Translations under genes and position numbers: made by a program
Assembly: GCA_014382245.1 (NCBI GenBank)
Contig: JACNKC010000048.1
Span: 2,032 to 66,031, forward strand
DNA from: Pseudomonadota bacterium
GTDB taxonomy: Bacteria > Desulfobacterota > Binatia > UBA1149
Reading direction: 5' to 3'
Length of the DNA: 64,000 bases
Part shown: in pieces, positions 3,019 to 55,179 of the stretch
Layout: the number at the start of each line of letters is the position of its first letter
Position numbering within the stretch: the first letter of the stretch is position 1
The notes under the pieces: generated by a model
Databases searched by the model: none
What the model was told of the DNA's origin: nothing
What the model saw: only the letters and a program-made list of their open reading frames with translations

Positions 3019-4032
3019 ATGCCAGTAGAAAAAGACTACTTCGTGGCGCTCTCGGAGTGCCACTTCATGAACCCCGAATCGATGGAAGAGATGTCCTACT
3101 ACCCGGGCTACGAGCGCTGGTGGAAGAGTATCGACGGGGTCATGCGCGCCTGGGGTGGTGACCGCGACCTGGCGGGTGGTGACGCCATGCCCGAGCCGCG
3201 CGCGCACGCGTTGATAGAGTGGATGGACAAGGCCGAGGTCGACGTCTGTTTTGCACTGCGCGAGTCGATGATGGACGTGGCCGACTACAGCACCTGCATG
3301 TCGACCAACGCCTTCATGCTCAAGGAGATCGAACCCTACCCCGAGCGCATGTACCTCGAGTGCAACTGCGGCCCCATACTCCGGCGCGGAGTCGACAAGG
3401 CGATCTGGGAACTGGAGTACCTGTTCAACGAGCGTAACGCGCGCCTGTGCAAGGTCTACGCGCCAGAGGACGGCCCTCTCAACGACAAGCGGTTGTGGCC
3501 CTTCTACGAAAAGTGTTGCGAGCTGGGCATAGCCATCACCGTGCACACGGGTATGAGCTACGTCTGCCCGCAGCCGAGCAAGTACTCAATGCCTGTATTG
3601 CTCGATGACGTGTGCCTCGACTTTCCGGAACTCAAGGTCATCGCCTATCACATGGGCTGGCCCAACACCGAGGAACTGATCGGCCTGGCCGGCAAGCACG
3701 TCAACCTGTACCTGAGCCTGTCGGGCATTCTCGGCTGGCTGGCGCGCTCGCCCTACCGCGCCTATCACATGATAGGCACCGCGCTGCAGTGGGTCAGTGA
3801 CGAAAAGATCGTCATGGGACTGGACCTCGCGTTTGACGACATGCCGTTGGTGGTCGACTTCATTCGTAACTTCCAGATTCCCGAGCAGCTGCGCGAAGAG
3901 TGGGGTTACAAGGAGATAACCGAGCAGATGCGCGCCAACATGCTGGGGCTCAACCTCGCAAAACTGGCCGGCATAGAGCCGACCCGCCGCGTGGGTAAGG
4001 GCAAGGGCAAACCGGGGGCCCTGTCCTCCTGA
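3019..4032 (+). CDS. Amidohydrolase-2 (TIM-barrel metal-dependent hydrolase/decarboxylase) family protein
   Basis: 337 aa with an AAGGAG-like RBS (gaaaggagacgaagtcATG). HTG, YHMGWP and DLAFDD-type metal-ligand patterns fit the amidohydrolase_2 family. Confidence 0.65.
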   Translation: MPVEKDYFVALSECHFMNPESMEEMSYYPGYERWWKSIDGVMRAWGGDRDLAGGDAMPEPRAHALIEWMDKAEVDVCFALRESMMDVADYSTCMSTNAFMLKEIEPYPERMYLECNCGPILRRGVDKAIWELEYLFNERNARLCKVYAPEDGPLNDKRLWPFYEKCCELGIAITVHTGMSYVCPQPSKYSMPVLLDDVCLDFPELKVIAYHMGWPNTEELIGLAGKHVNLYLSLSGILGWLARSPYRAYHMIGTALQWVSDEKIVMGLDLAFDDMPLVVDFIRNFQIPEQLREEWGYKEITEQMRANMLGLNLAKLAGIEPTRRVGKGKGKPGALSS

Positions 4033-4054
4033 CCGGCCTTCCGGGCGAGCGGCG

Positions 4055-5215
4055 ATGAAAGACAAGGCCTGTATCGTTGGCGTGGGCGCCACCGGGTTCT
4101 GCCGCGGCGAGGGCTCGGGCAAGAGCCTGCACGGGCTGCAACTCGAGGCCGCGCTGACCGCGCTGGCCGATGCTGGCCTGCGGGCGGGGCAGGTGGACGG
4201 CATCATGCCGTTTCCCAACCTGGGTACGGCCGAGGGTTTTGCCGCCAGCCTCGGCTGCGAGAACCTTAGGTTTGCCACCACGGTCAACATGGGCGGCGCG
4301 GCGCCGGTGGCGTCGCTGGGTGTCGCGGCCGCGGCTGTGACATCGGGGCTGGCCGACTACGTGCTCATGCCCGCGGGTTGGAACGGCTACTCGGGATCGC
4401 GGGCTGGCGCCATCGTGCAGGAGATGACGGCTTCGATTCCCGGCGGGGCGATCGCCCGCGACTTCTACCTGCCGCACGGACTGGTGGCTCCCCCGCAGTG
4501 GTACGCGCTCATCGCCCGCCGCCACATGCACGAGTACGGCACCACGGCAGAGCAGCTGGGCGCGGTCGCACTGGCGATGCGCAAGCACGCGCAGCTCAAC
4601 CCGGCCGCCGTCATGCACGACAAGTCGATGACCATGGAGCAGTACCTGGCCTCGCCGATGATCACCGACCCCTACCGCTTGTTCGACTGTTGCCTGGAGA
4701 CCGACGGCGCAGCGGCCTGCGTGGTTACGACCACCGAGCGGGCGCGCGACCTCGCCCGGCCGCCCGTGTACATAAGCGGGGTGGCCTCGGCCCAGCCCTA
4801 TCCGGCCGACGAGATTACCGGCAGGGAAGATATTTTTCGCACCGGGCTCACGGTGGCCGCTCCCCGGGCCTTCGAGATGGCCGGCGTAGAACCGGCGGAC
4901 GCCGATTTTGCCCAGGTGTACGACTGCTTCACCTTCGAGGTCGTCCAGCAGCTCGAAGAAGCCGGCTTCTGCACGCGTGGCGAGGGCGGTGCTTTCGTAG
5001 AGGGCGGGCGCATAGAGCTGGGCGGCGAGCTGCCCGTCAACACCCACGGTGGCCTGTTGAGCGAGGCCCACGTGCTGGGCATGGGCCACGTTGTGGAGGC
5101 CGCGCGGCAGTTGCGCGGCGAAGCAGCCGGGCGGCAGGTGGCCGACGCCAGCCTGGGAGTGGTGACCGGCTGGGGCGATTTCGGCGACGGCTCTATTGCC
5201 GTGTTGAGGAACTGA
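4055..5215 (+). CDS. Thiolase-like protein (SCP-x / lipid-transfer-protein type)
   Basis: 386 aa with thiolase-fold C-terminal motifs (NTHGGLLSEAH, GWGD). It is followed by a DUF35 partner gene. Confidence 0.75.
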   Translation: MKDKACIVGVGATGFCRGEGSGKSLHGLQLEAALTALADAGLRAGQVDGIMPFPNLGTAEGFAASLGCENLRFATTVNMGGAAPVASLGVAAAAVTSGLADYVLMPAGWNGYSGSRAGAIVQEMTASIPGGAIARDFYLPHGLVAPPQWYALIARRHMHEYGTTAEQLGAVALAMRKHAQLNPAAVMHDKSMTMEQYLASPMITDPYRLFDCCLETDGAAACVVTTTERARDLARPPVYISGVASAQPYPADEITGREDIFRTGLTVAAPRAFEMAGVEPADADFAQVYDCFTFEVVQQLEEAGFCTRGEGGAFVEGGRIELGGELPVNTHGGLLSEAHVLGMGHVVEAARQLRGEAAGRQVADASLGVVTGWGDFGDGSIAVLRN

Positions 5216-14681: not shown

Positions 14682-14861
14682 CCCTACCCAGCTCCCCGGA
14701 CGGGAAGCCCTACCCAGCTCCCCGGACGGGAAGCCCTACCCAGCTCCCCGGACGGGAAGCCCTACCCAGCTCCCCGGACGGGAAGCCCTACCCAGCTCCC
14801 CGGACGGGAAGCCCTACCCAGCTCCCCGGACGGGAAGCCCTACCCAGCTCCCCGGACGGGG
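14682..14861. repeat. Perfect 26-bp tandem repeat (CCCTACCCAGCTCCCCGGACGGGAAG), about 6.9 copies, intergenic between convergent genes
   Basis: Direct reading shows units starting at 14682, 14708, 14734, 14760, 14786, 14812 and 14838. All are identical and there are no spacers. Confidence 0.95.
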
Positions 14862-14917
14862 ATACGCACCTTTTTTTTTACAGGCTCGCGCCTGTCACAA
14901 AAAAGAGAGCGCATCCC

Positions 14918-16033
14918 CTAGAACTTGACGTTGATGTCCAGCCGGGCGCGCCAGTCGTCGTCGTTCGGTGACCCAAGGGCATCGTCGGCCCGCGACACCA
15001 GCAACCAGGGATGCACGTCAACGTTGTCGAAAGCCTTGTAGTGCAATCCAACGATATGCGCGCGCAGGTTTGTCTGCACTGTCATGTCGTCCTGCGAAAC
15101 CACTGACAACACCGCGTCCTGCCCCACGACCTGCCATTGGTAGTAACCCTGCATGTCGCCGACCTCGTTCTTGCTGCCGGCCTTTACGCCCAGCGACCAA
15201 CCGTAGTCCTCGTCGGGCTCGGCCCCGGTGTTGGCTATGAATTCACCCGACATCGTGACGGGCAGGCCGTTGTGGTCGCAGCTCACCGAAAACGAGGGGT
15301 TAATGATGTCGAAGTCGGACAGGAAATCATTGCCAGCCATGTCGGTGCGATTTCCCGAGTTGTCGGCGAATACCGTCTGGTCACCGCCCGGCGTCAAGTC
15401 ACTGTAGTGATAGTAATTCAACGCAGCCTTCACGGCAGCCTGGCCGACGGTGGTCGAGGCCGACACCCCGGCGGTCACAGCGGTCACCTCGTTACCATTG
15501 CCGTTTTCATTGAGAATGTAGGTGGTTACCGCGGCCCTGACGTTGTCGAGTTTACCCAGGCTACCGGCCGAGTACACCAGCGCGATGCCCTCGGGTTGCA
15601 CGTCGCCGTCCCAAACCAGCTCGTTGTACACCGCGTAGTTTTTCAGTACGTGCGAAAACTTGCCCGCCGTGATCGAAAGGCCTTCTGCCGCGGCCGGTTT
15701 CCAGCCGATCCACGCCCGGTCGAGGGCCACGTCCCAGTCGTTGAAGCTACTGCCGAAGGTCTGGTGGCTGCTGTTGGGGTCGTCGGTGTTACCTGTTACC
15801 AGGCGGGCCCCCAGCGTTATCTCGTCATTGATCGAGTAGGTGGCGCCTATGCGAGCACGCACGCGCTCGCGGTGCCGGTCACGGCCTGTTTCCACGAAGG
15901 TGCTTTCGTGGCGCAGGCGGAAATCGCCTGACAGGTCGAGCCCGTCAACAGCGCTGATGGCCGGGATTGGCAGGGCCGAAGTGGCGCCCACGAGCAACGC
16001 GGTGAATGCAACCGTAGCAATGATCCTGTTCAT
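14918..16033 (-). CDS. Outer-membrane porin-like beta-barrel protein
   Basis: Has a signal peptide, alternating amphipathic strands rich in G/Y/D/N, and a C-terminal NVKF. It is the last gene of the Mo-enzyme operon. Confidence 0.6.
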   Translation of the reverse strand: MNRIIATVAFTALLVGATSALPIPAISAVDGLDLSGDFRLRHESTFVETGRDRHRERVRARIGATYSINDEITLGARLVTGNTDDPNSSHQTFGSSFNDWDVALDRAWIGWKPAAAEGLSITAGKFSHVLKNYAVYNELVWDGDVQPEGIALVYSAGSLGKLDNVRAAVTTYILNENGNGNEVTAVTAGVSASTTVGQAAVKAALNYYHYSDLTPGGDQTVFADNSGNRTDMAGNDFLSDFDIINPSFSVSCDHNGLPVTMSGEFIANTGAEPDEDYGWSLGVKAGSKNEVGDMQGYYQWQVVGQDAVLSVVSQDDMTVQTNLRAHIVGLHYKAFDNVDVHPWLLVSRADDALGSPNDDDWRARLDINVKF

Positions 16034-46196: not shown

Positions 46197-46252
46197 CACG
46201 GCGACCGGCGCCCCACCTGCTCGTGGGCTGAACAACTGGAGAATAATTGAAT

Positions 46253-47323
46253 ATGGGATTTCGCGTGGAAACGGGCTTGCTCAACCCCGACAAGGACCAG
46301 TACGCCGGTGACGGTGGTTCAATGATGAACCTGGCTTTCATAGCCTCCGAAGCGGCTCGGCTGGAATCGCTGGGCTTTGATTCGATAGCCGTACCCGAGG
46401 CGGGGCACGACCCGTTTCTCGCGCTGGTGGTGGCGGCCGAACACACCGAGCGCGTGGAGTTGGCCACCAACGTAGCCATTTCCTTTCCCAGGTCGCCGAT
46501 GGTGACCGCGCAGATGGCCTGGGACCTGCAACAGTACTCCGACGGTCGCTTCGTGCTCGGCCTTGGCACGCAGGTCAAGGGGCACAACAAGTTTCGTTAC
46601 GCCACCGCCTGGGACAGTCCGCCGGGCCCGCGCATGCGCGAGTACCTCGAGTGCCTGCGCGCGATCTACAACGCCTTTGCCGGGGCCGATGGTCCCACGA
46701 CCTTTGAAGGTGAGCACTACACCTTCACCATGCTGCCGCCGTTCTTCAATCCCGGCCCCATCGACCACGCGTTGCCCGGGCTCACTATCGCCGCGGTCAA
46801 TCCTTACATGTGCCGCCTGGCGGGCGAGTTGTGCGACGGCGTGCGCCTGCACCCCATAGGTACGTTTTCATACCAGCAGGAGGTCGTGCAGCCGCTGCTC
46901 GAAAAGGGCGCGGCCAGGGCCGGTCGCCCGGCCGACCAGGTCAACCGCATAGGCGCGCCCTTCGTGGCCGTTGGTCGCAACGACGAAGAGATCGCCTCGG
47001 CCCGCGAGGCGCTCAAGCAGGCCATATCCTTCTACGCGTCCACGCGCACCTACCACGGCGTACTCGATCACCACGGCTGGCAGGACGCCGGCGCCGAGCT
47101 GCACCGCTTGTCCAAGCAGGGTGGCTGGAAAGAAATGCCGGCTGTCATCAGCGACGACATGCTCGACCAGTGGGCCATCACCACCAGCTGGGACGACTTC
47201 GCCGTCAACATGACCGAGCGTTGCCGCGGAGTGTACGACACGGTGCTGGTGGATTTTCCGCCGCAGCTGTCGCGCGACGAAGACCACGTGCGCGAAATAG
47301 TCGCGGCCCTCAAGTCCCCCTGA
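46253..47323 (+). CDS. Luciferase-like (LLM) oxidoreductase, F420-dependent-type subgroup
   Basis: Has the LGLGTQVKGHN block and is a close paralogue of 57153..58232 (shared SFPRxPMVxAQxAWDLQ, PGPRMREYLxCLRAI). Confidence 0.75.
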   Translation: MGFRVETGLLNPDKDQYAGDGGSMMNLAFIASEAARLESLGFDSIAVPEAGHDPFLALVVAAEHTERVELATNVAISFPRSPMVTAQMAWDLQQYSDGRFVLGLGTQVKGHNKFRYATAWDSPPGPRMREYLECLRAIYNAFAGADGPTTFEGEHYTFTMLPPFFNPGPIDHALPGLTIAAVNPYMCRLAGELCDGVRLHPIGTFSYQQEVVQPLLEKGAARAGRPADQVNRIGAPFVAVGRNDEEIASAREALKQAISFYASTRTYHGVLDHHGWQDAGAELHRLSKQGGWKEMPAVISDDMLDQWAITTSWDDFAVNMTERCRGVYDTVLVDFPPQLSRDEDHVREIVAALKSP

Positions 47324-47390
47324 AGGGGAAGACGTACCTTTTCTCGGTTTCAGACGTGGTCTGGAAGGTGGAAAAGGTGGCAGGTCAGCC
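47322..47390 (+). promoter_or_regulatory. Conserved intergenic hairpin element, copy A (possible cis-regulatory RNA or REP-like repeat)
   Basis: A 21-nt block GAAGGGGAAGACGTACCTTTT is identical to copy B. The outer stem pairs ACCTTTTC (47336-47343) with GAAAAGGT (47371-47378). The inner stem pairs TTTCAGAC with GTCTGGAA (47348-47366). The strand assignment is tentative. Confidence 0.4.
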
Positions 47391-47432
47391 GCCGCAGCCG
47401 CAGTAAAGGAAGCAGCACGGGAGGAATAAGTA

Positions 47433-49157
47433 ATGTCAGCGAATACAGAAACGGGGCAGCTAAGCGGTGGCGAGTTGATCGCAAGGTGCCTTGCCGCCGA
47501 GGGTATCGAGCTGCTGTTCGGCTTGCCCTGCCCGGAAATTGAGCCTCTGCTTGTGTCACTTGACGACAACGGCATCCGGTTTTTCCCCGTACGCCACGAG
47601 GCTGCCGCCGTGCACATGGCCGAGGGTGTGTACAAGACCACCGGTCGCGTGGCCGCTGTGATCGGCAACCCGGGTCCCGGTTCTGCCAACCTTGTGCCCG
47701 GGGTCGTGACGGCAATGCACGAGGGCGTCCCGGTACTGGTGATGACCGCCCAGCACAGGCTGGGGCTTGTCTACCCGTCTACGCCGGCGACCTTCCAGGG
47801 CCAGGACCAGCTCGACCTGTTTCGCTCAACGGTGAAGTGGGGAGGGCCGGTGTTCGAGTGGTCTCGCATTCCCGAGGTCATGAGAATGGCCTTCCGTCAC
47901 ATGCTATCCGGGCGCCCGGGGCCCGTGCACCTGGAGTTACCGGCGCCCATTATAGCTGCCACCGGGGATGCGGCCTCGGCACCGGTCTGGCCGCCAGGCC
48001 GATCGCGAGCGCCGCTTTCCTGCGCGCCGGCCAGGCAAGTAGACGCTGTCACTGCCCTGCTGGCCGGCGCTTCCCGGCCCATGATCGTCTCGGGCGCGGG
48101 GGTTGACCGAGCGGGTGCGGCCGCCCGCCTGCTGGAACTGGTCGAGCTGCTCAACTGCCCGGTAATAACAACCACGTCGGGGCGAGCCACGTTTCCGTTC
48201 GATCACCCGAACGTTCGCGGTGGCTACGGCGAGGACGGTGACCGCGCCCGCCGCGAGGCCGACGTCGTGCTGGTGCTGGGCTCGCGCATGGGCAACGTCG
48301 ACCTTCCCTTCGACAAGTACTGGGGCCCGGCCGGCGCGTGCACCTTGGTGCAGGTGGACGTCGAGGCTGCCAACATCGGCGTTTCCCGTCCGGTTGACCT
48401 TGCCGTGGTGAGCGACGTGAGTTCGTTCCTCGACCTGCTGCTGACCGCCCTGCGCGAGCGCGGGGTGAACCGGCGCGGCGCGCAAGAGATGGACGGGCTG
48501 GCCCGGGAGTCATCTGCTTACTGGCAGGCCATGCTGGCGGACACCGTCGCGTGGAAAGGCGAGGGCATTCACCCGGCACACGCGTTGGCGATCGTCGGCG
48601 AAGTTTTCGGCGACGAACCCGTCTACCAGGTCGATGGCGGCATGACCTCCTTGTGGGCCGGCTGGTTCCTGCCCGCCACCCGGCCGCGTTCCTATCACGG
48701 CATAACAGAGCTGGGAATGCTGGGCACCGGTGTACCGGCGGCCGTGGGTGCGCGACTGGCCGACCCGGACCGCGAGGTTTTGTGCTTGACCGGCGACGGT
48801 GCCGCGGGTTTCAACTTCATGGAGTTGCAGTCCGCGGCCCGCGAGGGGGTCGATATCACGGTCGTCGTTTTTGCCGAGGGGTCATGGACCATGGAGGAAC
48901 CGAGCGAGCTGGCGGCATACGGCCGCACCTTCGGTACCGAGATGGGAGAGGTGCGCTGGGACCGCGTGGCCGAAGGCCTGGGTGCGTACGGCGAGTACGT
49001 GGACAGGCTCGACGAACTGGCGGCTGCTTTGACCCGGGCCCGGGAGCATCGCGGTCCGGCGGTGGTTTGCTTGCGAACCAGCGTGGAGGCAAACCGCGCG
49101 GTGCCCGGCGAAATGTTCCAGCGTTTCTTCGAGGTCTACTGGGGCCCGATGGCCTGA
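47433..49157 (+). CDS. Thiamine diphosphate-dependent enzyme (acetolactate synthase large-subunit-like family)
   Basis: Has an N-terminal PYR domain (GIELLFGLP...VRHEAAAVHMAEG) and the ThDP motif GDGAAGFNFMELQ...N. Confidence 0.85.
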   Translation: MSANTETGQLSGGELIARCLAAEGIELLFGLPCPEIEPLLVSLDDNGIRFFPVRHEAAAVHMAEGVYKTTGRVAAVIGNPGPGSANLVPGVVTAMHEGVPVLVMTAQHRLGLVYPSTPATFQGQDQLDLFRSTVKWGGPVFEWSRIPEVMRMAFRHMLSGRPGPVHLELPAPIIAATGDAASAPVWPPGRSRAPLSCAPARQVDAVTALLAGASRPMIVSGAGVDRAGAAARLLELVELLNCPVITTTSGRATFPFDHPNVRGGYGEDGDRARREADVVLVLGSRMGNVDLPFDKYWGPAGACTLVQVDVEAANIGVSRPVDLAVVSDVSSFLDLLLTALRERGVNRRGAQEMDGLARESSAYWQAMLADTVAWKGEGIHPAHALAIVGEVFGDEPVYQVDGGMTSLWAGWFLPATRPRSYHGITELGMLGTGVPAAVGARLADPDREVLCLTGDGAAGFNFMELQSAAREGVDITVVVFAEGSWTMEEPSELAAYGRTFGTEMGEVRWDRVAEGLGAYGEYVDRLDELAAALTRAREHRGPAVVCLRTSVEANRAVPGEMFQRFFEVYWGPMA

Positions 49158-49161
49158 GATA

Positions 49162-51054
49162 CTACGAGCCTGAGTGGTCGTTGGTCGGTGGTGACTGCCG
49201 CGGAGGTTCCTGAGAGGCGGCAGTGGCCGCGCTGGCCTGCGGGGCCGATCTGCCGCGGCGCTTGCGCTCGTGCGGGTCGAGCCAGCGCTTGCGCAGGCGT
49301 ACCGAGGTAGGCGTTACCTCAACGAGCTCGTCGTCGGCCACGTAGCTCATGGCCTGCTCGACGGTCATGCGCGTGGGCGGCGTGAGTTGTATGGCGTCGT
49401 CTTTGCCCGAGGCGCGCATGTTGGTCAGCTGCTTGCCCTTGAGCGGGTTTACGTCGAGGTCGCTGCCCTTGTTGTGCTCGCCGATTATCATTCCGCGGTA
49501 CACTTTCTCGCCCGGGCCGATGAACAGTGGGCCGCGTTCCTCGAGGTTCCAGAGCGCGTAGGCAACCGATTGCCCCTGCTCCATTGACACCAGGGTGCCA
49601 CAACGGCGCCCGGGCATATCGCCGGCCACCGGCTCCCAGTCGTGGAAGAGGCGGTGCATGACGCCGGTGCCGCGGGTGTCGGTCAAAAATTCGCCGTGGT
49701 AACCGATCAGCCCGCGCGATGGCACGTGGAACACGACCCTGGTCTTACCGCCACCCGAGCTCTGCATTTCGACCATGCGTCCGCGGCGCTGGGCCATTTT
49801 TTCGACGACCACGCCGGTAAAGTTATCGTCTACGTCAACCACCGCTTCTTCTACCGGTTCGCAGAGCACTCCCGTGTCGGGGTCCTCGCGGTAGAGAACG
49901 CGCGGCCGGCCTAGCGAAAGCTCGTAGCCCTCGCGGCGCATGATTTCCACGAGCACGCCCAGTTGCAGCTCGCCGCGGCCGGCTACTTCGAACACGGTCT
50001 TGTCGTCGGTGTCGGACACCCGCAAGGCCACGTTGCCCTCGGCCTCGCGCCACAGGCGCTCGCGTATAGCCCGGCTGGTCACCTTGTCGCCTTCCTTGCC
50101 GGCCAGCGGCGAGTCGTTGATGGCAAAGGACATGGCCAGCGTGGGTGGGTCAACGGGTTGGGCGGGCAGTGCCTGGCAGACGTCGGGTTCACAGATGGTG
50201 TCGGCCACCGTCGCGTCCTCGAGTCCGGCGATAGCCACGATGTCGCCCGCGGTGGCGCTGTCGAGCGAAGTGCGTTGCAGGCCGTCAAACGAAAGCACCT
50301 TGGTTATGCGCCCGGTCTCGACCATGCCCCCGTCGAGCGAGAGCACCTTAACCGCCATGTTTGACCGTACCGTGCCCGACTCCACGCGCCCGGTGAGTAT
50401 GCGCCCGAGCCACGGGTCGTACTCCAGGGTGGTGGCGAGCATGCGGAACGCGCCTGTATCGTCCAGGCGCGGCGCGGGCGTGTGGTCGACTATGAGTTCA
50501 AACAGCGGGCTCATGTCCACGCGCTCGTCGGCGAGGTCGTGGACGGCCCACCCCTGCTTGGCCGAAGCGTAGACGACGGGAAAATCGAGCTGGTCGTCGG
50601 TGGCCTCGAGGGCGGCAAAAAGATCGAAGATCTCGTTGAGCACTTCTTCGGCTCGCTGGTCGGGGCGGTCCACCTTGTTGATTACGACCAGCGGTTTCAG
50701 CCCCAGCCTGAGTGCCTTGCCCACCACGAAACGGGTCTGTGGCATGGGGCCCTCGGCAGCGTCCACGAGCACGCACACGCCGTCGACCATGCTCAGTATG
50801 CGTTCCACCTCGCCACCGAAGTCGGCGTGGCCCGGCGTGTCAACGATGTTTATGCGGGTGTCCTTCCAGGTTACCGACGTGCACTTGGCCAGTATGGTGA
50901 TGCCGCGTTCGCGCTCGAGGTCGTTGCTGTCCATGGCGCGGTCGACCAGCTCCTGGTGGTCGCCGAGCGCGCCGCCCTGCTGCAACAGCCGGTCCACGAG
51001 CGTGGTCTTGCCATGGTCGACGTGGGCGATGATGGCCGTGTTTCTTACGTTCAT
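49162..51054 (-). CDS. typA: Translational GTPase TypA/BipA
   Basis: Has RNTAIIAHVDHGKTTLVD, DTPGHADFGGEVER and NKVDR GTPase motifs. The start is set at the ATG at 51054. It has a basic/Pro-rich C-terminal tail. Confidence 0.92.
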   Translation of the reverse strand: MNVRNTAIIAHVDHGKTTLVDRLLQQGGALGDHQELVDRAMDSNDLERERGITILAKCTSVTWKDTRINIVDTPGHADFGGEVERILSMVDGVCVLVDAAEGPMPQTRFVVGKALRLGLKPLVVINKVDRPDQRAEEVLNEIFDLFAALEATDDQLDFPVVYASAKQGWAVHDLADERVDMSPLFELIVDHTPAPRLDDTGAFRMLATTLEYDPWLGRILTGRVESGTVRSNMAVKVLSLDGGMVETGRITKVLSFDGLQRTSLDSATAGDIVAIAGLEDATVADTICEPDVCQALPAQPVDPPTLAMSFAINDSPLAGKEGDKVTSRAIRERLWREAEGNVALRVSDTDDKTVFEVAGRGELQLGVLVEIMRREGYELSLGRPRVLYREDPDTGVLCEPVEEAVVDVDDNFTGVVVEKMAQRRGRMVEMQSSGGGKTRVVFHVPSRGLIGYHGEFLTDTRGTGVMHRLFHDWEPVAGDMPGRRCGTLVSMEQGQSVAYALWNLEERGPLFIGPGEKVYRGMIIGEHNKGSDLDVNPLKGKQLTNMRASGKDDAIQLTPPTRMTVEQAMSYVADDELVEVTPTSVRLRKRWLDPHERKRRGRSAPQASAATAASQEPPRQSPPTNDHSGS

Positions 51055-53046: not shown

Positions 53047-53115
53047 GAAGGGGAAGACGTACCTTTTGCAGGTTTGAGACGTAGTCTCAAAGGCCGAAAA
53101 GGTAGCAGGTCTGGC
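53047..53115 (+). promoter_or_regulatory. Conserved intergenic hairpin element, copy B
   Basis: Has the same 21-nt 5' block as copy A. The inner stem pairs TTTGAGAC with GTCTCAAA (53073-53091) and carries a compensatory C-G to G-C swap relative to copy A. It lies between divergent genes, just upstream of the 53132 operon. Confidence 0.4.
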
Positions 53116-53131: not shown

Positions 53132-54649
53132 GTGTATTCTCTCGCGACCGTCATGGACGCCGCCCCCGAGATAGAATCTTCCCCGGACGCCGGGCCCTCG
53201 CAGTTGCCAGCGAACGGGCTCGTGGCATTCGTCAAGCGCGACTGCCCTACCTGCGAGCTCGTCGGGCCGGTGCTGGCCGAGCTGGCCGCCGCCGCAAAAA
53301 CATCTGCCAGCCCACTCACGGTTTACAGCCAGGACGATCCGTCGTTTCCCGAGGGCCTGCACCCGCGCGACGACCGCGAGCTGGCGGCCTCCTGGCGCAA
53401 CAAGATCGAAACCGTGCCCACGCTGCTGCGCCTGGACGACGGCCGTGAAACCGGCCGCGTGGTGGGCTGGCATCGCGCAGAGTGGCAAGAGCTTACGGGC
53501 GTTACGCGGCTTGGCGAGGCCCTGCCCGATAGCCGACCCGGTTGCGGCTCGCTGTCGGTCGATCCCGCGCGCGAGTCGCAACTCAGGGCGCGTTTTGAAA
53601 GCGGCCGCCTGTCGGCACGACGAGTTCAACTCGCCGAACTCGAAGACGAGTTCGAGCTGGCCCACGAGCGCGGTTGGAGCGACGGCCTTCCCGTCGTGCC
53701 GCCCACCGAGCGACGCGTGCTCGACATGCTCGAGGGTACTGAACGCGACCCCGCCGAGATCGTGGCCACGGTGCCGCCTGACCTCGTTGACTGCACGGTA
53801 GAAAAAGTAGCCATCAACGCTGTCATGGCAGGCTGCCGACCCGAGTACCTGCCGGTAGTGCTGGCCGCCGTTGAAGCCGTGTGCAGCGACGAGTTCAACA
53901 TGCACGGCGTGCTGGCCACGACCATGGGCGTTGGCCCTGTCTTGATCGTCAACGGCCCGCTGCGCCGCCGCATAAACATGAACTCCGGCGTCAACGTGCT
54001 CGGCCAGGGCAACCGCGCCAACGCGACCATCGGCCGCGCCCTGCAACTGGTCATCCGCAACGTGGGCGGCGGCCGCCCCGACGGGGTAGACCGCGCGACC
54101 TACGGCAACCCCGGCAAGCTGGGGCTGTGTTTTGCCGAGGGTGAAGAAGACTCGCCGTGGCAGTCGCTGGCCGTTGACCGTGGCTTCGACCCCTCGGCGA
54201 ACACCGTCACCGTGTTTACCGGCGAGGCGCCGCGCACGGTGGTCGACCAGCTGTCGCGCGAACCCGGGTCGCTGGCGCGCTCGCTGGCCGCCGGCCTCAT
54301 GGGCGTGCTACATCCCAAGCTGGGTTTCTTCATGGACGCCATGCTGGTCATCGGCCCTGAGCACGCGCGCGTGTTTGCCGACGCGGGTTGGGGCAAGCAG
54401 CAACTCATCGACCGCCTGCACGAGCTCACCACCGTGCCGGCCAGCGAAATGAGCCGCGGCACGGGTGGCATTGAAGAGGGCCTGCCGCTGCCCGCCGAAA
54501 TGGCCGACCAGCCCGTGGGTAAGTTCGTGCCGGGTGCGCTGCACCTGGTTTTTGCCGGCGGCGGCGCGGGGCTTTTCTCGGTCGTCATCGGCGGCTGGCT
54601 CAACGGCGACGCGGGCAGCCGCATGACCACGAGGGAGATAGGCAGATGA
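53132..54649 (+). CDS. Thioredoxin-fold (CPTC) N-terminal domain fused to a large conserved domain of unknown function
   Basis: Has VAFVKRDCPTCELVGPVL, followed by about 380 aa with no family I can name. An alternative start is the ATG at 53153. Its stop overlaps the next ATG (ATGA). Confidence 0.55.
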   Translation: MYSLATVMDAAPEIESSPDAGPSQLPANGLVAFVKRDCPTCELVGPVLAELAAAAKTSASPLTVYSQDDPSFPEGLHPRDDRELAASWRNKIETVPTLLRLDDGRETGRVVGWHRAEWQELTGVTRLGEALPDSRPGCGSLSVDPARESQLRARFESGRLSARRVQLAELEDEFELAHERGWSDGLPVVPPTERRVLDMLEGTERDPAEIVATVPPDLVDCTVEKVAINAVMAGCRPEYLPVVLAAVEAVCSDEFNMHGVLATTMGVGPVLIVNGPLRRRINMNSGVNVLGQGNRANATIGRALQLVIRNVGGGRPDGVDRATYGNPGKLGLCFAEGEEDSPWQSLAVDRGFDPSANTVTVFTGEAPRTVVDQLSREPGSLARSLAAGLMGVLHPKLGFFMDAMLVIGPEHARVFADAGWGKQQLIDRLHELTTVPASEMSRGTGGIEEGLPLPAEMADQPVGKFVPGALHLVFAGGGAGLFSVVIGGWLNGDAGSRMTTREIGR

Positions 54650-55179
54650 ACGAAGAACAAACGGCCACGCGAACCATACTCGACCCGGGTAACGAGCGCG
54701 TCCCGGGGCAGCGACCGGCCGCGCCCAGGCTCGGTGGCATCGAGGGCCGAACGGTCGGCCTGCTCGATATTTCCAAGCCCCGCGGCGACGTCTTTCTCAA
54801 CACCCTCGAGGCGCTGCTAACGGAGCGCGGCGCGCGCGTGCTGCGCTACGCCAAGCCCACCTTCACCAAGCCCGCGCCGGTGGACCTGAGGCAGAAGATC
54901 GCCGTGGAGTGCGAGGCCGTCGTGGAGGCCCTGGCCGATTGAGGCAGCTGCACGACGTGCAGTGTGCACGACATCGCAGATCTTGAATCACGCGGCATCC
55001 CGGGCGTATACGTGGCCACGGTGGAGTTTGAGCAGGCCGGTCATGGGCAGGCCGCGGCGCTGGGCGCGACCGAGGCCGGCGTGTTCGTGGCCCACCCGGT
55101 ACAGGATCGCAGCGACGAAGAAATGAAAGAGATGGCCAGGCTCGCAGTCGATGGCCTGATGGGGAGAATAACAGGATGA
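54646..55179 (+). CDS. Putative selenoprotein with an in-frame UGA (54940-54942) in a U-G-S-C motif
   Basis: The tracked ORFs 54646..54942 and 54964..55179 are in the same frame and separated only by a TGA. Read-through gives ...VVEALAD-U-GSCTTCSVHDIADLESRGIPGVYV.... Hairpins follow the TGA, and both ends are translationally coupled to neighbouring genes. Confidence 0.6.
54947..54970 (+). other. Candidate bacterial SECIS hairpin(s) downstream of the in-frame UGA
   Basis: GCTGCAC-GAC-GTGCAGT spans 54947-54963. An alternative hairpin, CGTGCA-GTG-TGCACG, spans 54956-54970 with a G-containing apical loop about 20 nt after the UGA. Confidence 0.35.

Follow-up and report, generated by a model that had tools for sequence, protein, structure and literature searches.

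The closest described relatives of the element reported here are the repetitive extragenic palindromic (REP) sequences and their hairpin-forming doublets (REPINs), for which the defining arrangement is a gene for a REP-associated tyrosine transposase (RAYT) flanked by its own repeat (PMC5581495, PMC3733652). REP sequences lie mainly downstream of coding regions, where they are plausibly transcribed, and stop codons may adjoin REP termini or be supplied by them (PMC3733652). Families have been defined by GTAG and CGTC tags (PMC3733652, PMC3479197), and the 16-mers that flank RAYT genes of groups 1 and 4 occur 12 to 14 times (PMC5581495). Here, we describe a hairpin repeat of ~66 nucleotides (nt) from a 64,000-nt stretch of DNA of an uncultivated Pseudomonadota bacterium (contig JACNKC010000048.1, positions 2,032 to 66,031), which we refer to as the window. 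Two copies, A (47322-47388) and B (53047-53113), lie on its plus strand. With a probability of roughly 85%, we regard A and B as somewhat decayed members of a REP-type family whose RAYT-like transposase is encoded elsewhere in the same genome.

Within the window, the resemblance between the two copies is sharply bounded. Pairwise alignment gives ~66 nt that are alike and then end abruptly at GGTC(A/T), near 47387 in copy A and 53112 in copy B. A shared 21-mer, GAAGGGGAAGACGTACCTTTT, occurs exactly twice in the window, still only twice when up to three mismatches are tolerated, and in none of 100 dinucleotide-preserving shuffles. Both copies fold into an outer stem, ACCTTTT/AAAAGGT, and an 8-bp inner stem; a third, outermost stem of 4 bp joins AGAC of the 5' flank to GTCT of the 3' flank. 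Given the 21-mer, the shuffles, and the folds, the pair lies far beyond chance. A first-pass annotation of the window had described an element of ~70 nt present twice, with the 21-mer and other shared blocks in the same order and the same two stems, and this description is borne out by the coordinates, the alignment, the shuffles, and the folding. Its list of base differences, a C-G pair in A that is G-C in B and a T.G pair in A that is T-A in B, is likewise accurate.

Two sequences alone could not show membership in a family, which came instead from a wider search of contigs. Four metagenome runs contain the window at 100%, and the runs that contain it are marine, subsurface, and hydrothermal metagenomes. 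When contigs from the four runs were placed on copy A at 80% likeness or more, the element matched 10 to 12 different contigs per run, whereas its unique flanks matched one contig only. The element-bearing contigs had the depth of the window in each run (12-15x, ~190-230x, 56-62x, and 45-55x). A scan with the outer stem as a pattern (AGACGTACCTTTT N20-40 GAAAAGGT) returned three chance matches only from GTDB representative genomes, one inside a Dehalococcoidia gene, one in a Flavobacteriales contig, and one in Ligilactobacillus, and these representatives therefore do not include the genome of the window. In metagenome contigs, the same pattern returned 16 loci, 15 of which were real copies with a constant spacing of 49 nt; the other (L018) differs in spacing and was set aside as a chance match. 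A profile hidden Markov model (HMM) and a covariance model added two further degenerate copies. After duplicates of a locus from different samples had been removed, 15 distinct loci were aligned. At least 13 loci of the same element beyond A and B lie on contigs of window depth, and we place the size of the family in this genome at roughly 15 to 20 copies. Inside the 64-kb window, neither the profile HMM nor the covariance model, run without filters, found a third copy.

The family consensus begins with GGGAAGACGT, continues with the hairpin ACCTTTTCGGGGTTTSAGAC-NNN-GTCTSAAACCCCGAAAAGGT, and closes with AGYAGGTCT. It describes a perfect 20-bp stem with a 3-nt loop, set between asymmetric conserved flanks. 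Among the 15 aligned copies, the outer heptamers are invariant and head columns 5-14 are invariant or nearly so. In copy A, the head GAAGGGGAAGACGT (47322-47335) forms a conserved single-stranded 5' flank and is placed as the guide or tag tetranucleotide is in REPs, at the hairpin foot. The hairpin itself (47336-47378) reads ACCTTTT CTCGG TTTCAGAC GTG GTCTGGAA GGTGG AAAAGGT, with a mispaired middle block that opens an internal loop. In its 3' flank, GGCAGGTCA (47379-47387; AGYAGGTCT in the consensus), GTCT pairs with AGAC of the head and GCAG is left as an asymmetric bulge. Copy B has the same head, GAAGGGGAAGACGT (53047-53060), a hairpin (53061-53103) that reads ACCTTTT GCAGG TTTGAGAC GTA GTCTCAAA GGCCG AAAAGGT and is mispaired in part of its middle block, and the 3' flank AGCAGGTCT (53104-53112). 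Covariance-model bit scores, which serve here as a ranking among the 15 full-length copies that built the model, put A (76.1) and B (78) in the lower third, along with 71.1 and 73.4 for the two copies at the transposase locus and 77.8 for L014; most others score 84 to 91. The internal loops in A and B are best read as the decay of a once perfect stem.

The family includes a locus with the arrangement that defines REP systems. On contig JACKQG010000864.1 (L008), an open reading frame (ORF) of 223 amino acids (aa) at 4055-4726 on the minus strand is bracketed by two inverted copies of the element, at 3972-4038 (plus strand) and 4784-4850 (minus strand), with their tails pointing inward. The encoded protein contains the HUH motif (PNHFHMV) and the sequence YVERNPLRAGL, and it matches the Pfam family Y1_Tnp at 48 bits (cutoff of 23). 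Its sole NCBIfam match is REP_Tyr_transpos, "REP-associated tyrosine transposase" (NF047646, E=2e-19), and its best match in the PDB is E. coli TnpA_REP (4ER8), with which the HUH motif and the catalytic tyrosine align. The depth of the transposase locus equals that of the window in all four runs (12.4, 204, 60, and 49.4), and one Logan contig contains part of the locus together with other copies of the element. Because of this equal depth and the shared contig, we assign the transposase gene to the genome of the window. A tblastn search found no RAYT in the window itself. The gene has the depth of a single copy, and tblastn found no second one in ~170 kb of related sequence.

Homologs of the transposase number in the thousands, are ~227 aa long at ~50% identity, and, where named, come from Planctomycetes. 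We examined three, one from Schlesneria paludicola and the others on two metagenome contigs; in each, inverted hairpins with the sequence AAAAGGTGTCAGGAACCTTTT or its complement enclose the gene, ~35 to 60 nt ahead of its start codon and at its stop codon. These hairpins share with our element the AAAAGGT/ACCTTTT stem next to GTC/GAC, a dispersed distribution, and a position flanking a transposase of ~50% identity. They differ in the order of the arms (AAAAGGT-loop-ACCTTTT), in a unit of 21 nt, in a 7-nt loop, and in their other flanks; in our element, ACCTTTT and AAAAGGT enclose 13 bp more. Judging from these sequences, the shared heptamer next to GTC/GAC may represent recognition determinants inherited within one clade of transposases. 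In S. paludicola JH636436 (L020, 3982-13650), at least seven copies of the 21-nt hairpin AAAAGGTGTCAGGAACCTTTT occur within 20 kb around the homologous Y1 gene, some of them as inverted doublets ~120 nt apart. The arrangement resembles a REP/REPIN system, here in a planctomycete that has been cultured.

The likeness to described systems is one of architecture more than of detail. As in the REPs and bacterial interspersed mosaic elements (BIMEs) of E. coli with TnpA_REP (4ER8), we found a short extragenic hairpin repeat with conserved single-stranded nucleotides at its 5' foot, an asymmetric imperfection (here the GCAG bulge and the often mismatched column pair 30/42), and an HUH/Y1 gene flanked by inverted copies. 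Unlike the ~35-nt REPs of E. coli, however, the unit here is 66 nt long with a 43-nt hairpin and a 20-bp stem, its foot is GACGT rather than GTAG, it occurs in ~15 to 20 copies rather than hundreds, and the protein is 223 aa long compared to 165 aa for TnpA_REP. Nonautonomous palindromes are likewise scattered extragenically in Pseudomonas fluorescens SBW25, where these REPINs accompany a RAYT that is single copy, as ours probably is (Bertels and Rainey 2011, PMC3116915), but each unit here is one long hairpin whose arms are not palindromic themselves, with a doublet-like arrangement at a single locus (L006). The moderate copy number resembles that of the 16-mers flanking group 1 and group 4 RAYTs. 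Repeat-flanked tyrosine transposase genes and moderately abundant dispersed families are also features of the GTAG and CGTC REP superfamilies and of the TIRYT genes or "TIRtrons" associated with terminal inverted repeats (TIRs) (Di Nocera et al. 2013, PMC3733652). In our element, however, CGTC is confined to the complementary strand, where it lies 3' of the hairpin; the stem has 20 bp compared to the 8 or 9 bp of the CGTC families (PMC3733652); and the match to the GGGGWSAS motif of some TIRs (PMC3733652) is approximate only (GGGGAAGAC). Finally, the ends of IS200/IS605 insertion sequences (IS608, ISDra2) belong with the same transposase fold family, have subterminal imperfect hairpins that are read as single-stranded DNA, and insert without target duplication beside a short specific target, for which we propose an analogy below. 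They differ in that the copies described here have no transposase gene of their own, and the transposase gene appears to be single copy.

Several observations weigh against our interpretation. On the 5' side of the stem, the foot is GACGT (within an AAGACGT that is invariant in all 15 copies) and neither canonical tag, GTAG or CGTC, is present; moreover, ~15 to 20 copies is low next to classic REP families with hundreds. The REP_Tyr_transpos score of 69.9 bits falls below the curated equivalog cutoff of 80, and the sequence match to 4ER8 is marginal (E=0.013). The transposase lies outside the window, and its assignment to the same genome draws on equal contig depth in four runs and shared repeats rather than on a closed assembly. 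No empty-site polymorphism was found, nor any direct sign of recent mobility; in the lower-coverage runs in which empty sites were sought (X8, X9, X12, and X13), there were fragments of the same strain and no joint that skips A or B. Related genomes that lack copy A differ by a whole cassette, so that no insertion event is isolated. Since the element has neither the tag nor the doublet form of the named families, we file it as being of the REP/RAYT kind and set it in no named REP family.

Those related genomes also inform how the element changes over time. Three sister metagenome-assembled genomes (MAGs; L029-L031) are 94 to 96% identical to the window on either side, and their TypA is 98% identical. 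By TypA, the closest named relatives are MAGs labeled Deltaproteobacteria bacterium (98% and 84 to 86%) and one labeled Candidatus Krumholzibacteriia (87%), followed by Alphaproteobacteria at ~70%. Copy B is kept at the orthologous site, where it has five stem substitutions and no compensating change, and where its 3' outer arm has been destroyed by a deletion of 2 nt. Copy A is missing: window 47314-49233, which holds copy A, the gene for a thiamine diphosphate (ThDP) enzyme, and the last ~24 codons of TypA, gives way in the sister MAGs to genes for a TetR regulator and a fatty-acid desaturase (L029 11822-13383). The left junction of this cassette is within ~10 to 30 nt of the copy A head, and the final 10 codons of the monooxygenase gene that precedes copy A are far more diverged between the window and the sister MAGs than is the remainder of that gene. 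The cassette is strain variable, and copy A falls exactly on one of its junctions.

Comparison among the 15 copies reveals modest covariation. Standard pairs make up 90.6% of pair cells in the alignment. Both sides have changed at six pairs (e.g., CGGGG/CCCCG versus CGCCCA/TGGGCG in L007), and the covariation score was reached by 2 of 500 column shuffles. Of the 20 stem pairs, 11 are invariant, and pairing is absent from the middle block (columns 23-26 with 46-49) in 3 to 7 of the 15 copies. As for the compensatory change that the first-pass annotation had read from A and B, the difference between the pairs is real, but the column pair in question (30/42) is unpaired in 7 of 15 copies.

Other variation in the stem points to the behavior of DNA. 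Relative to the flanks, the loop (columns 35-37; 47356-47358 in A and 53081-53083 in B) is GTG-like in eight loci and has the complement, CAC-like, in six or seven, from which it follows that the core of the palindrome flips relative to its flanks. Between the two copies beside the transposase gene, the inner palindrome is flipped almost exactly. Such flips suggest that the palindrome undergoes inversion or template switching. In addition, L014, both L008 copies, A, and B look like chimeras, with left and right arms from different subtypes. Core flipping and chimeric arms, as palindrome dynamics at the DNA level, fit these data better than does selection on an RNA fold. Fold z-scores for A and B are -2.6 and -2.0 on the plus strand and -3.0 and -4.7 on the minus strand; because the minus strand folds at least as well, the copies behave as DNA palindromes, with nothing specific to RNA.

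A few copies depart from the common form. At L006 (6778-6873), the element is composite, in that a second, inverted head (GAACGGGAAGACGTACCTTTTCC) abuts the tail and creates a larger palindrome flanked by a head at either end; this is the sole doublet-like arrangement among the copies. A degenerate 73-nt copy at L016 (4970-5042) directly follows a stop codon, and the interior of its stem has been replaced by T10 and then G8. L011 (820-886) and L019 (871-937) represent the same locus in two populations that are 98.8% identical. The difference between them inside the element is confined to the loop region (GAGACTACGTCTC versus GAGACCAGGTCTC), which indicates ongoing substitution at the tip of the hairpin.

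The element is intergenic at all 15 loci, with ORFs called by length and the signature of G+C at third codon positions. The first-pass annotation had held that many further copies at random orientations and positions, including inside genes, would point to a plain dispersed repeat; further copies are indeed many and occur in both orientations relative to genes, but none is inside a gene. In 9 of 15 cases, the head begins 0 to 4 nt past the stop of a co-oriented gene, with TGA 1 to 7 nt before GGGG. Seven of these nine genes have Pfam support, and their families are mutually unrelated: a luciferase-like monooxygenase, a glycosyltransferase, an FAD monooxygenase, a short-chain dehydrogenase, an alkyl-sulfatase-like protein, seryl-tRNA synthetase, and a thiolase. 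The remaining copies comprise three in divergent regions (including B), two that are antisense between tandem genes, and one whose left neighbor is unknown. Distances from the tail to the next gene are looser, at 11 to 23 nt. The 20 nt upstream of the heads contain 48% C and 14% G, compared to ~33% each in the genome (G+C, ~65%), and a CCCCTGA-type context precedes 6 to 8 of the 15 copies. Target-site duplications do not rise above control, with a mean shared flank word of 4.0 nt versus 3.98 nt in mismatched controls.

Copy A provides an example of this abutment. The luciferase-like monooxygenase gene (46247-47323, plus strand) stops with TGA at 47321-47323, just after a run of C at 47316-47320, and the last two bases of this stop are also the first two of the copy A head. 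The segment 47316-47323 could be a YCTGA context for targeting or cleavage, or else part of the element itself, extended on its 5' side and loosely conserved. In the sister MAGs, the monooxygenase gene ends at the same codon position in a different sequence (...GCG GCC TAG) that no element follows; the stop beside copy A is thus native to the gene and was not imported by the element. By analogy, we hypothesize that the head end may be placed beside a YCTGA-like motif, often a stop codon, in the way that IS200/IS605 elements use short targets and TnpA_REP cleaves at CT (PMC3479197). Where the upstream flank is rich in C (e.g., window 47302-47321, L011, L008, L007, and L016), it can pair with the GGGG of the head into a small second hairpin with the stop codon in the loop. 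Copy B, L005, and L012 have CTCATCT upstream instead; for B and L005, the divergent gene has its start codon at the CAT in this sequence.

In the window, the ThDP-enzyme gene (47433-49157) follows the end of copy A at a distance of 45 nt. Copy B occupies a 115-nt divergent region, where its head starts 9 nt from the ATG (53037-53035, minus strand) of a beta-lactamase-family gene and its 3' flank ends 40 nt upstream of the called start (53153) of a gene encoding 498 aa. The latter heads a cluster with two UGSC-family ORFs. These adjacent small ORFs (54646-54942 and 54964-55179), which match UGSC in Pfam, are what the first-pass annotation had called a selenoprotein operon. Elsewhere in the window, at 14800-14920, a 26-nt unit (CCGGACGGGAAGCCCTACCCAGCTCC) is repeated ~2.4 times in tandem ahead of a hairpin, ACAGGC-TCGC-GCCTGT, that stands between convergent ORFs, is flanked by T9 and A-rich runs, and looks like a bidirectional terminator. 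Marginal covariance-model matches in this region (14854-14921) were rejected as copies of the family given their different, terminator-like stem between convergent genes.

Of the other explanations that we weighed, co-option of the element as a hairpin in the 3' untranslated region (UTR) is compatible with a REP/RAYT origin. The 20-bp stem, ~15 to 21 nt past the stop, would protect mRNA from 3' exonucleases or modulate termination or ribosome release, effects that have been reported for some REPs of E. coli. REPs within ~15 nt of a stop codon reportedly reduce translation, an observation attributed to Liang, Rudd, and Deutscher (Mol Cell 2015). The nine sense copies just behind a co-oriented stop, seven of them behind genes with Pfam support, speak for such a role, as do the folding energies of extended copies (-20 to -49 kcal/mol) and the fact that REPs in general lie mostly downstream of coding regions and are plausibly transcribed (PMC3733652). 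However, two copies are antisense between tandem genes, three are in divergent promoter regions, a third to half of copies lack pairing in mid-stem, and the ortholog of copy B has decayed without compensation. Sparse metatranscriptome contigs (X21-X23) cover parts of the flanking genes and not the element. We consider this role unlikely. A cis-regulatory leader RNA, such as a riboswitch or attenuator for the ThDP enzyme and the UGSC/selenoprotein-like cluster, was the other half of the proposal in the first-pass annotation, which had named either a cis-regulatory RNA or a structured REP-like element. Only the REP-like half withstood scrutiny, through at least 15 loci and a flanked RAYT-type gene in the same genome bin. 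A and B do share an orientation upstream of plus-strand genes, their fold is more stable than that of shuffles, and the family covaries to some extent. Yet, the downstream genes are unrelated across the 15 loci, and the element mostly follows the end of a gene or faces a convergent one, in both orientations. It is a single long hairpin without the conserved loops or junctions of a ligand pocket; both strands fold equally well, as would those of a DNA palindrome; and stem columns are unpaired within the family, while the sister lineage shows stem-breaking drift. Rfam gave no hit at gathering thresholds across the whole window, and permissive scans of A and B gave chance-level matches only (E of 0.96 or more). 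We give a leader RNA almost no credence.

Explanations at the level of DNA fare little better. A miniature inverted-repeat transposable element (MITE) mobilized by a DDE transposase would be a short, palindromic, dispersed, and intergenic repeat of this sort, and the inverted hairpins around the Y1 gene resemble the ends of an IS200/IS605 insertion sequence present in many copies. But target-site duplications are no more frequent than in controls, the transposase is found at only one of at least 15 loci, at single-copy depth and with no second gene in the ~170 kb searched by tblastn, and every solitary copy comprises the whole hairpin unit instead of one end, left or right, all of which makes this explanation very unlikely. 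It is similarly hard to credit that the element is a palindromic site for a host protein (an operator, or a site for a nucleoid-associated protein or gyrase) kept by selection on the DNA itself. The perfect 20-bp palindrome would suit such a site, as would its invariant outer heptamers, and the REPs of E. coli do bind host proteins (PMC3479197), but most copies lie at the 3' ends of genes or in convergent regions and not at promoters, their neighboring genes are unrelated, the element decays in the sister lineage, and the association with a Y1 transposase would go unexplained. We also rejected three more specific identities. An intrinsic-terminator scanner was negative at A and B, and no T-run follows the hairpin on either strand (3' flank AGCAGGTCT or ACGTCTTCCC); a promoter scan was negative at both copies as well. 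An integron attC site would have the core GTTRRRY, which is absent, and CRISPR repeats would form an array, of which there is none; the neighbors are ordinary metabolic genes in mixed orientation.

The sequences themselves show the family, its palindromic form, its intergenic placement, and a RAYT gene that copies flank in the same genome bin. For a REP-type family with its own RAYT, we infer catalysis, target choice, and any effect at the RNA level by analogy with E. coli TnpA_REP and IS200/IS605. The hairpin would form when the element is single-stranded DNA. The RAYT would then recognize this hairpin together with the asymmetric flanks and the conserved foot nucleotides, cleave nearby with its catalytic tyrosine, and transfer the strand, such that copies could spread without target-site duplication. 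Insertion appears to favor a C-rich ...CTGA, often the stop codon of the gene itself. Once inserted, copies would drift, and mid-stem pairing has been lost from A and B; any effect of a hairpin in the 3' UTR on the upstream mRNA would be a by-product or a secondary exaptation. A stronger version of this scheme is speculative, and we think it improbable: a target-specific REP in which the RAYT inserts 3' of a C-rich ...CTGA, usually the stop of a gene, which would fix the hairpin 15 to 21 nt past the ribosome A site, with the host using some copies to tune termination or the stability of the mRNA 3' end.

Our findings give an ordinary explanation, a small mobile-DNA repeat, to what had been a candidate for a new structured RNA. 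They document a REP/RAYT pair in an uncultivated marine and subsurface lineage and tie it to a large, mostly planctomycete clade of ~227-aa Y1 transposases with AAAAGGT/ACCTTTT hairpins, which provides a handle on the coevolution of RAYTs and their repeats. The one mildly unusual feature of the family is the abutment of heads on stop codons in a C-rich upstream context, which could reflect either target choice or the secondary use of a hairpin in the 3' UTR. The choice of targets by RAYTs is poorly understood, even in E. coli, and the junction between head and stop offers a small, testable lead on it.

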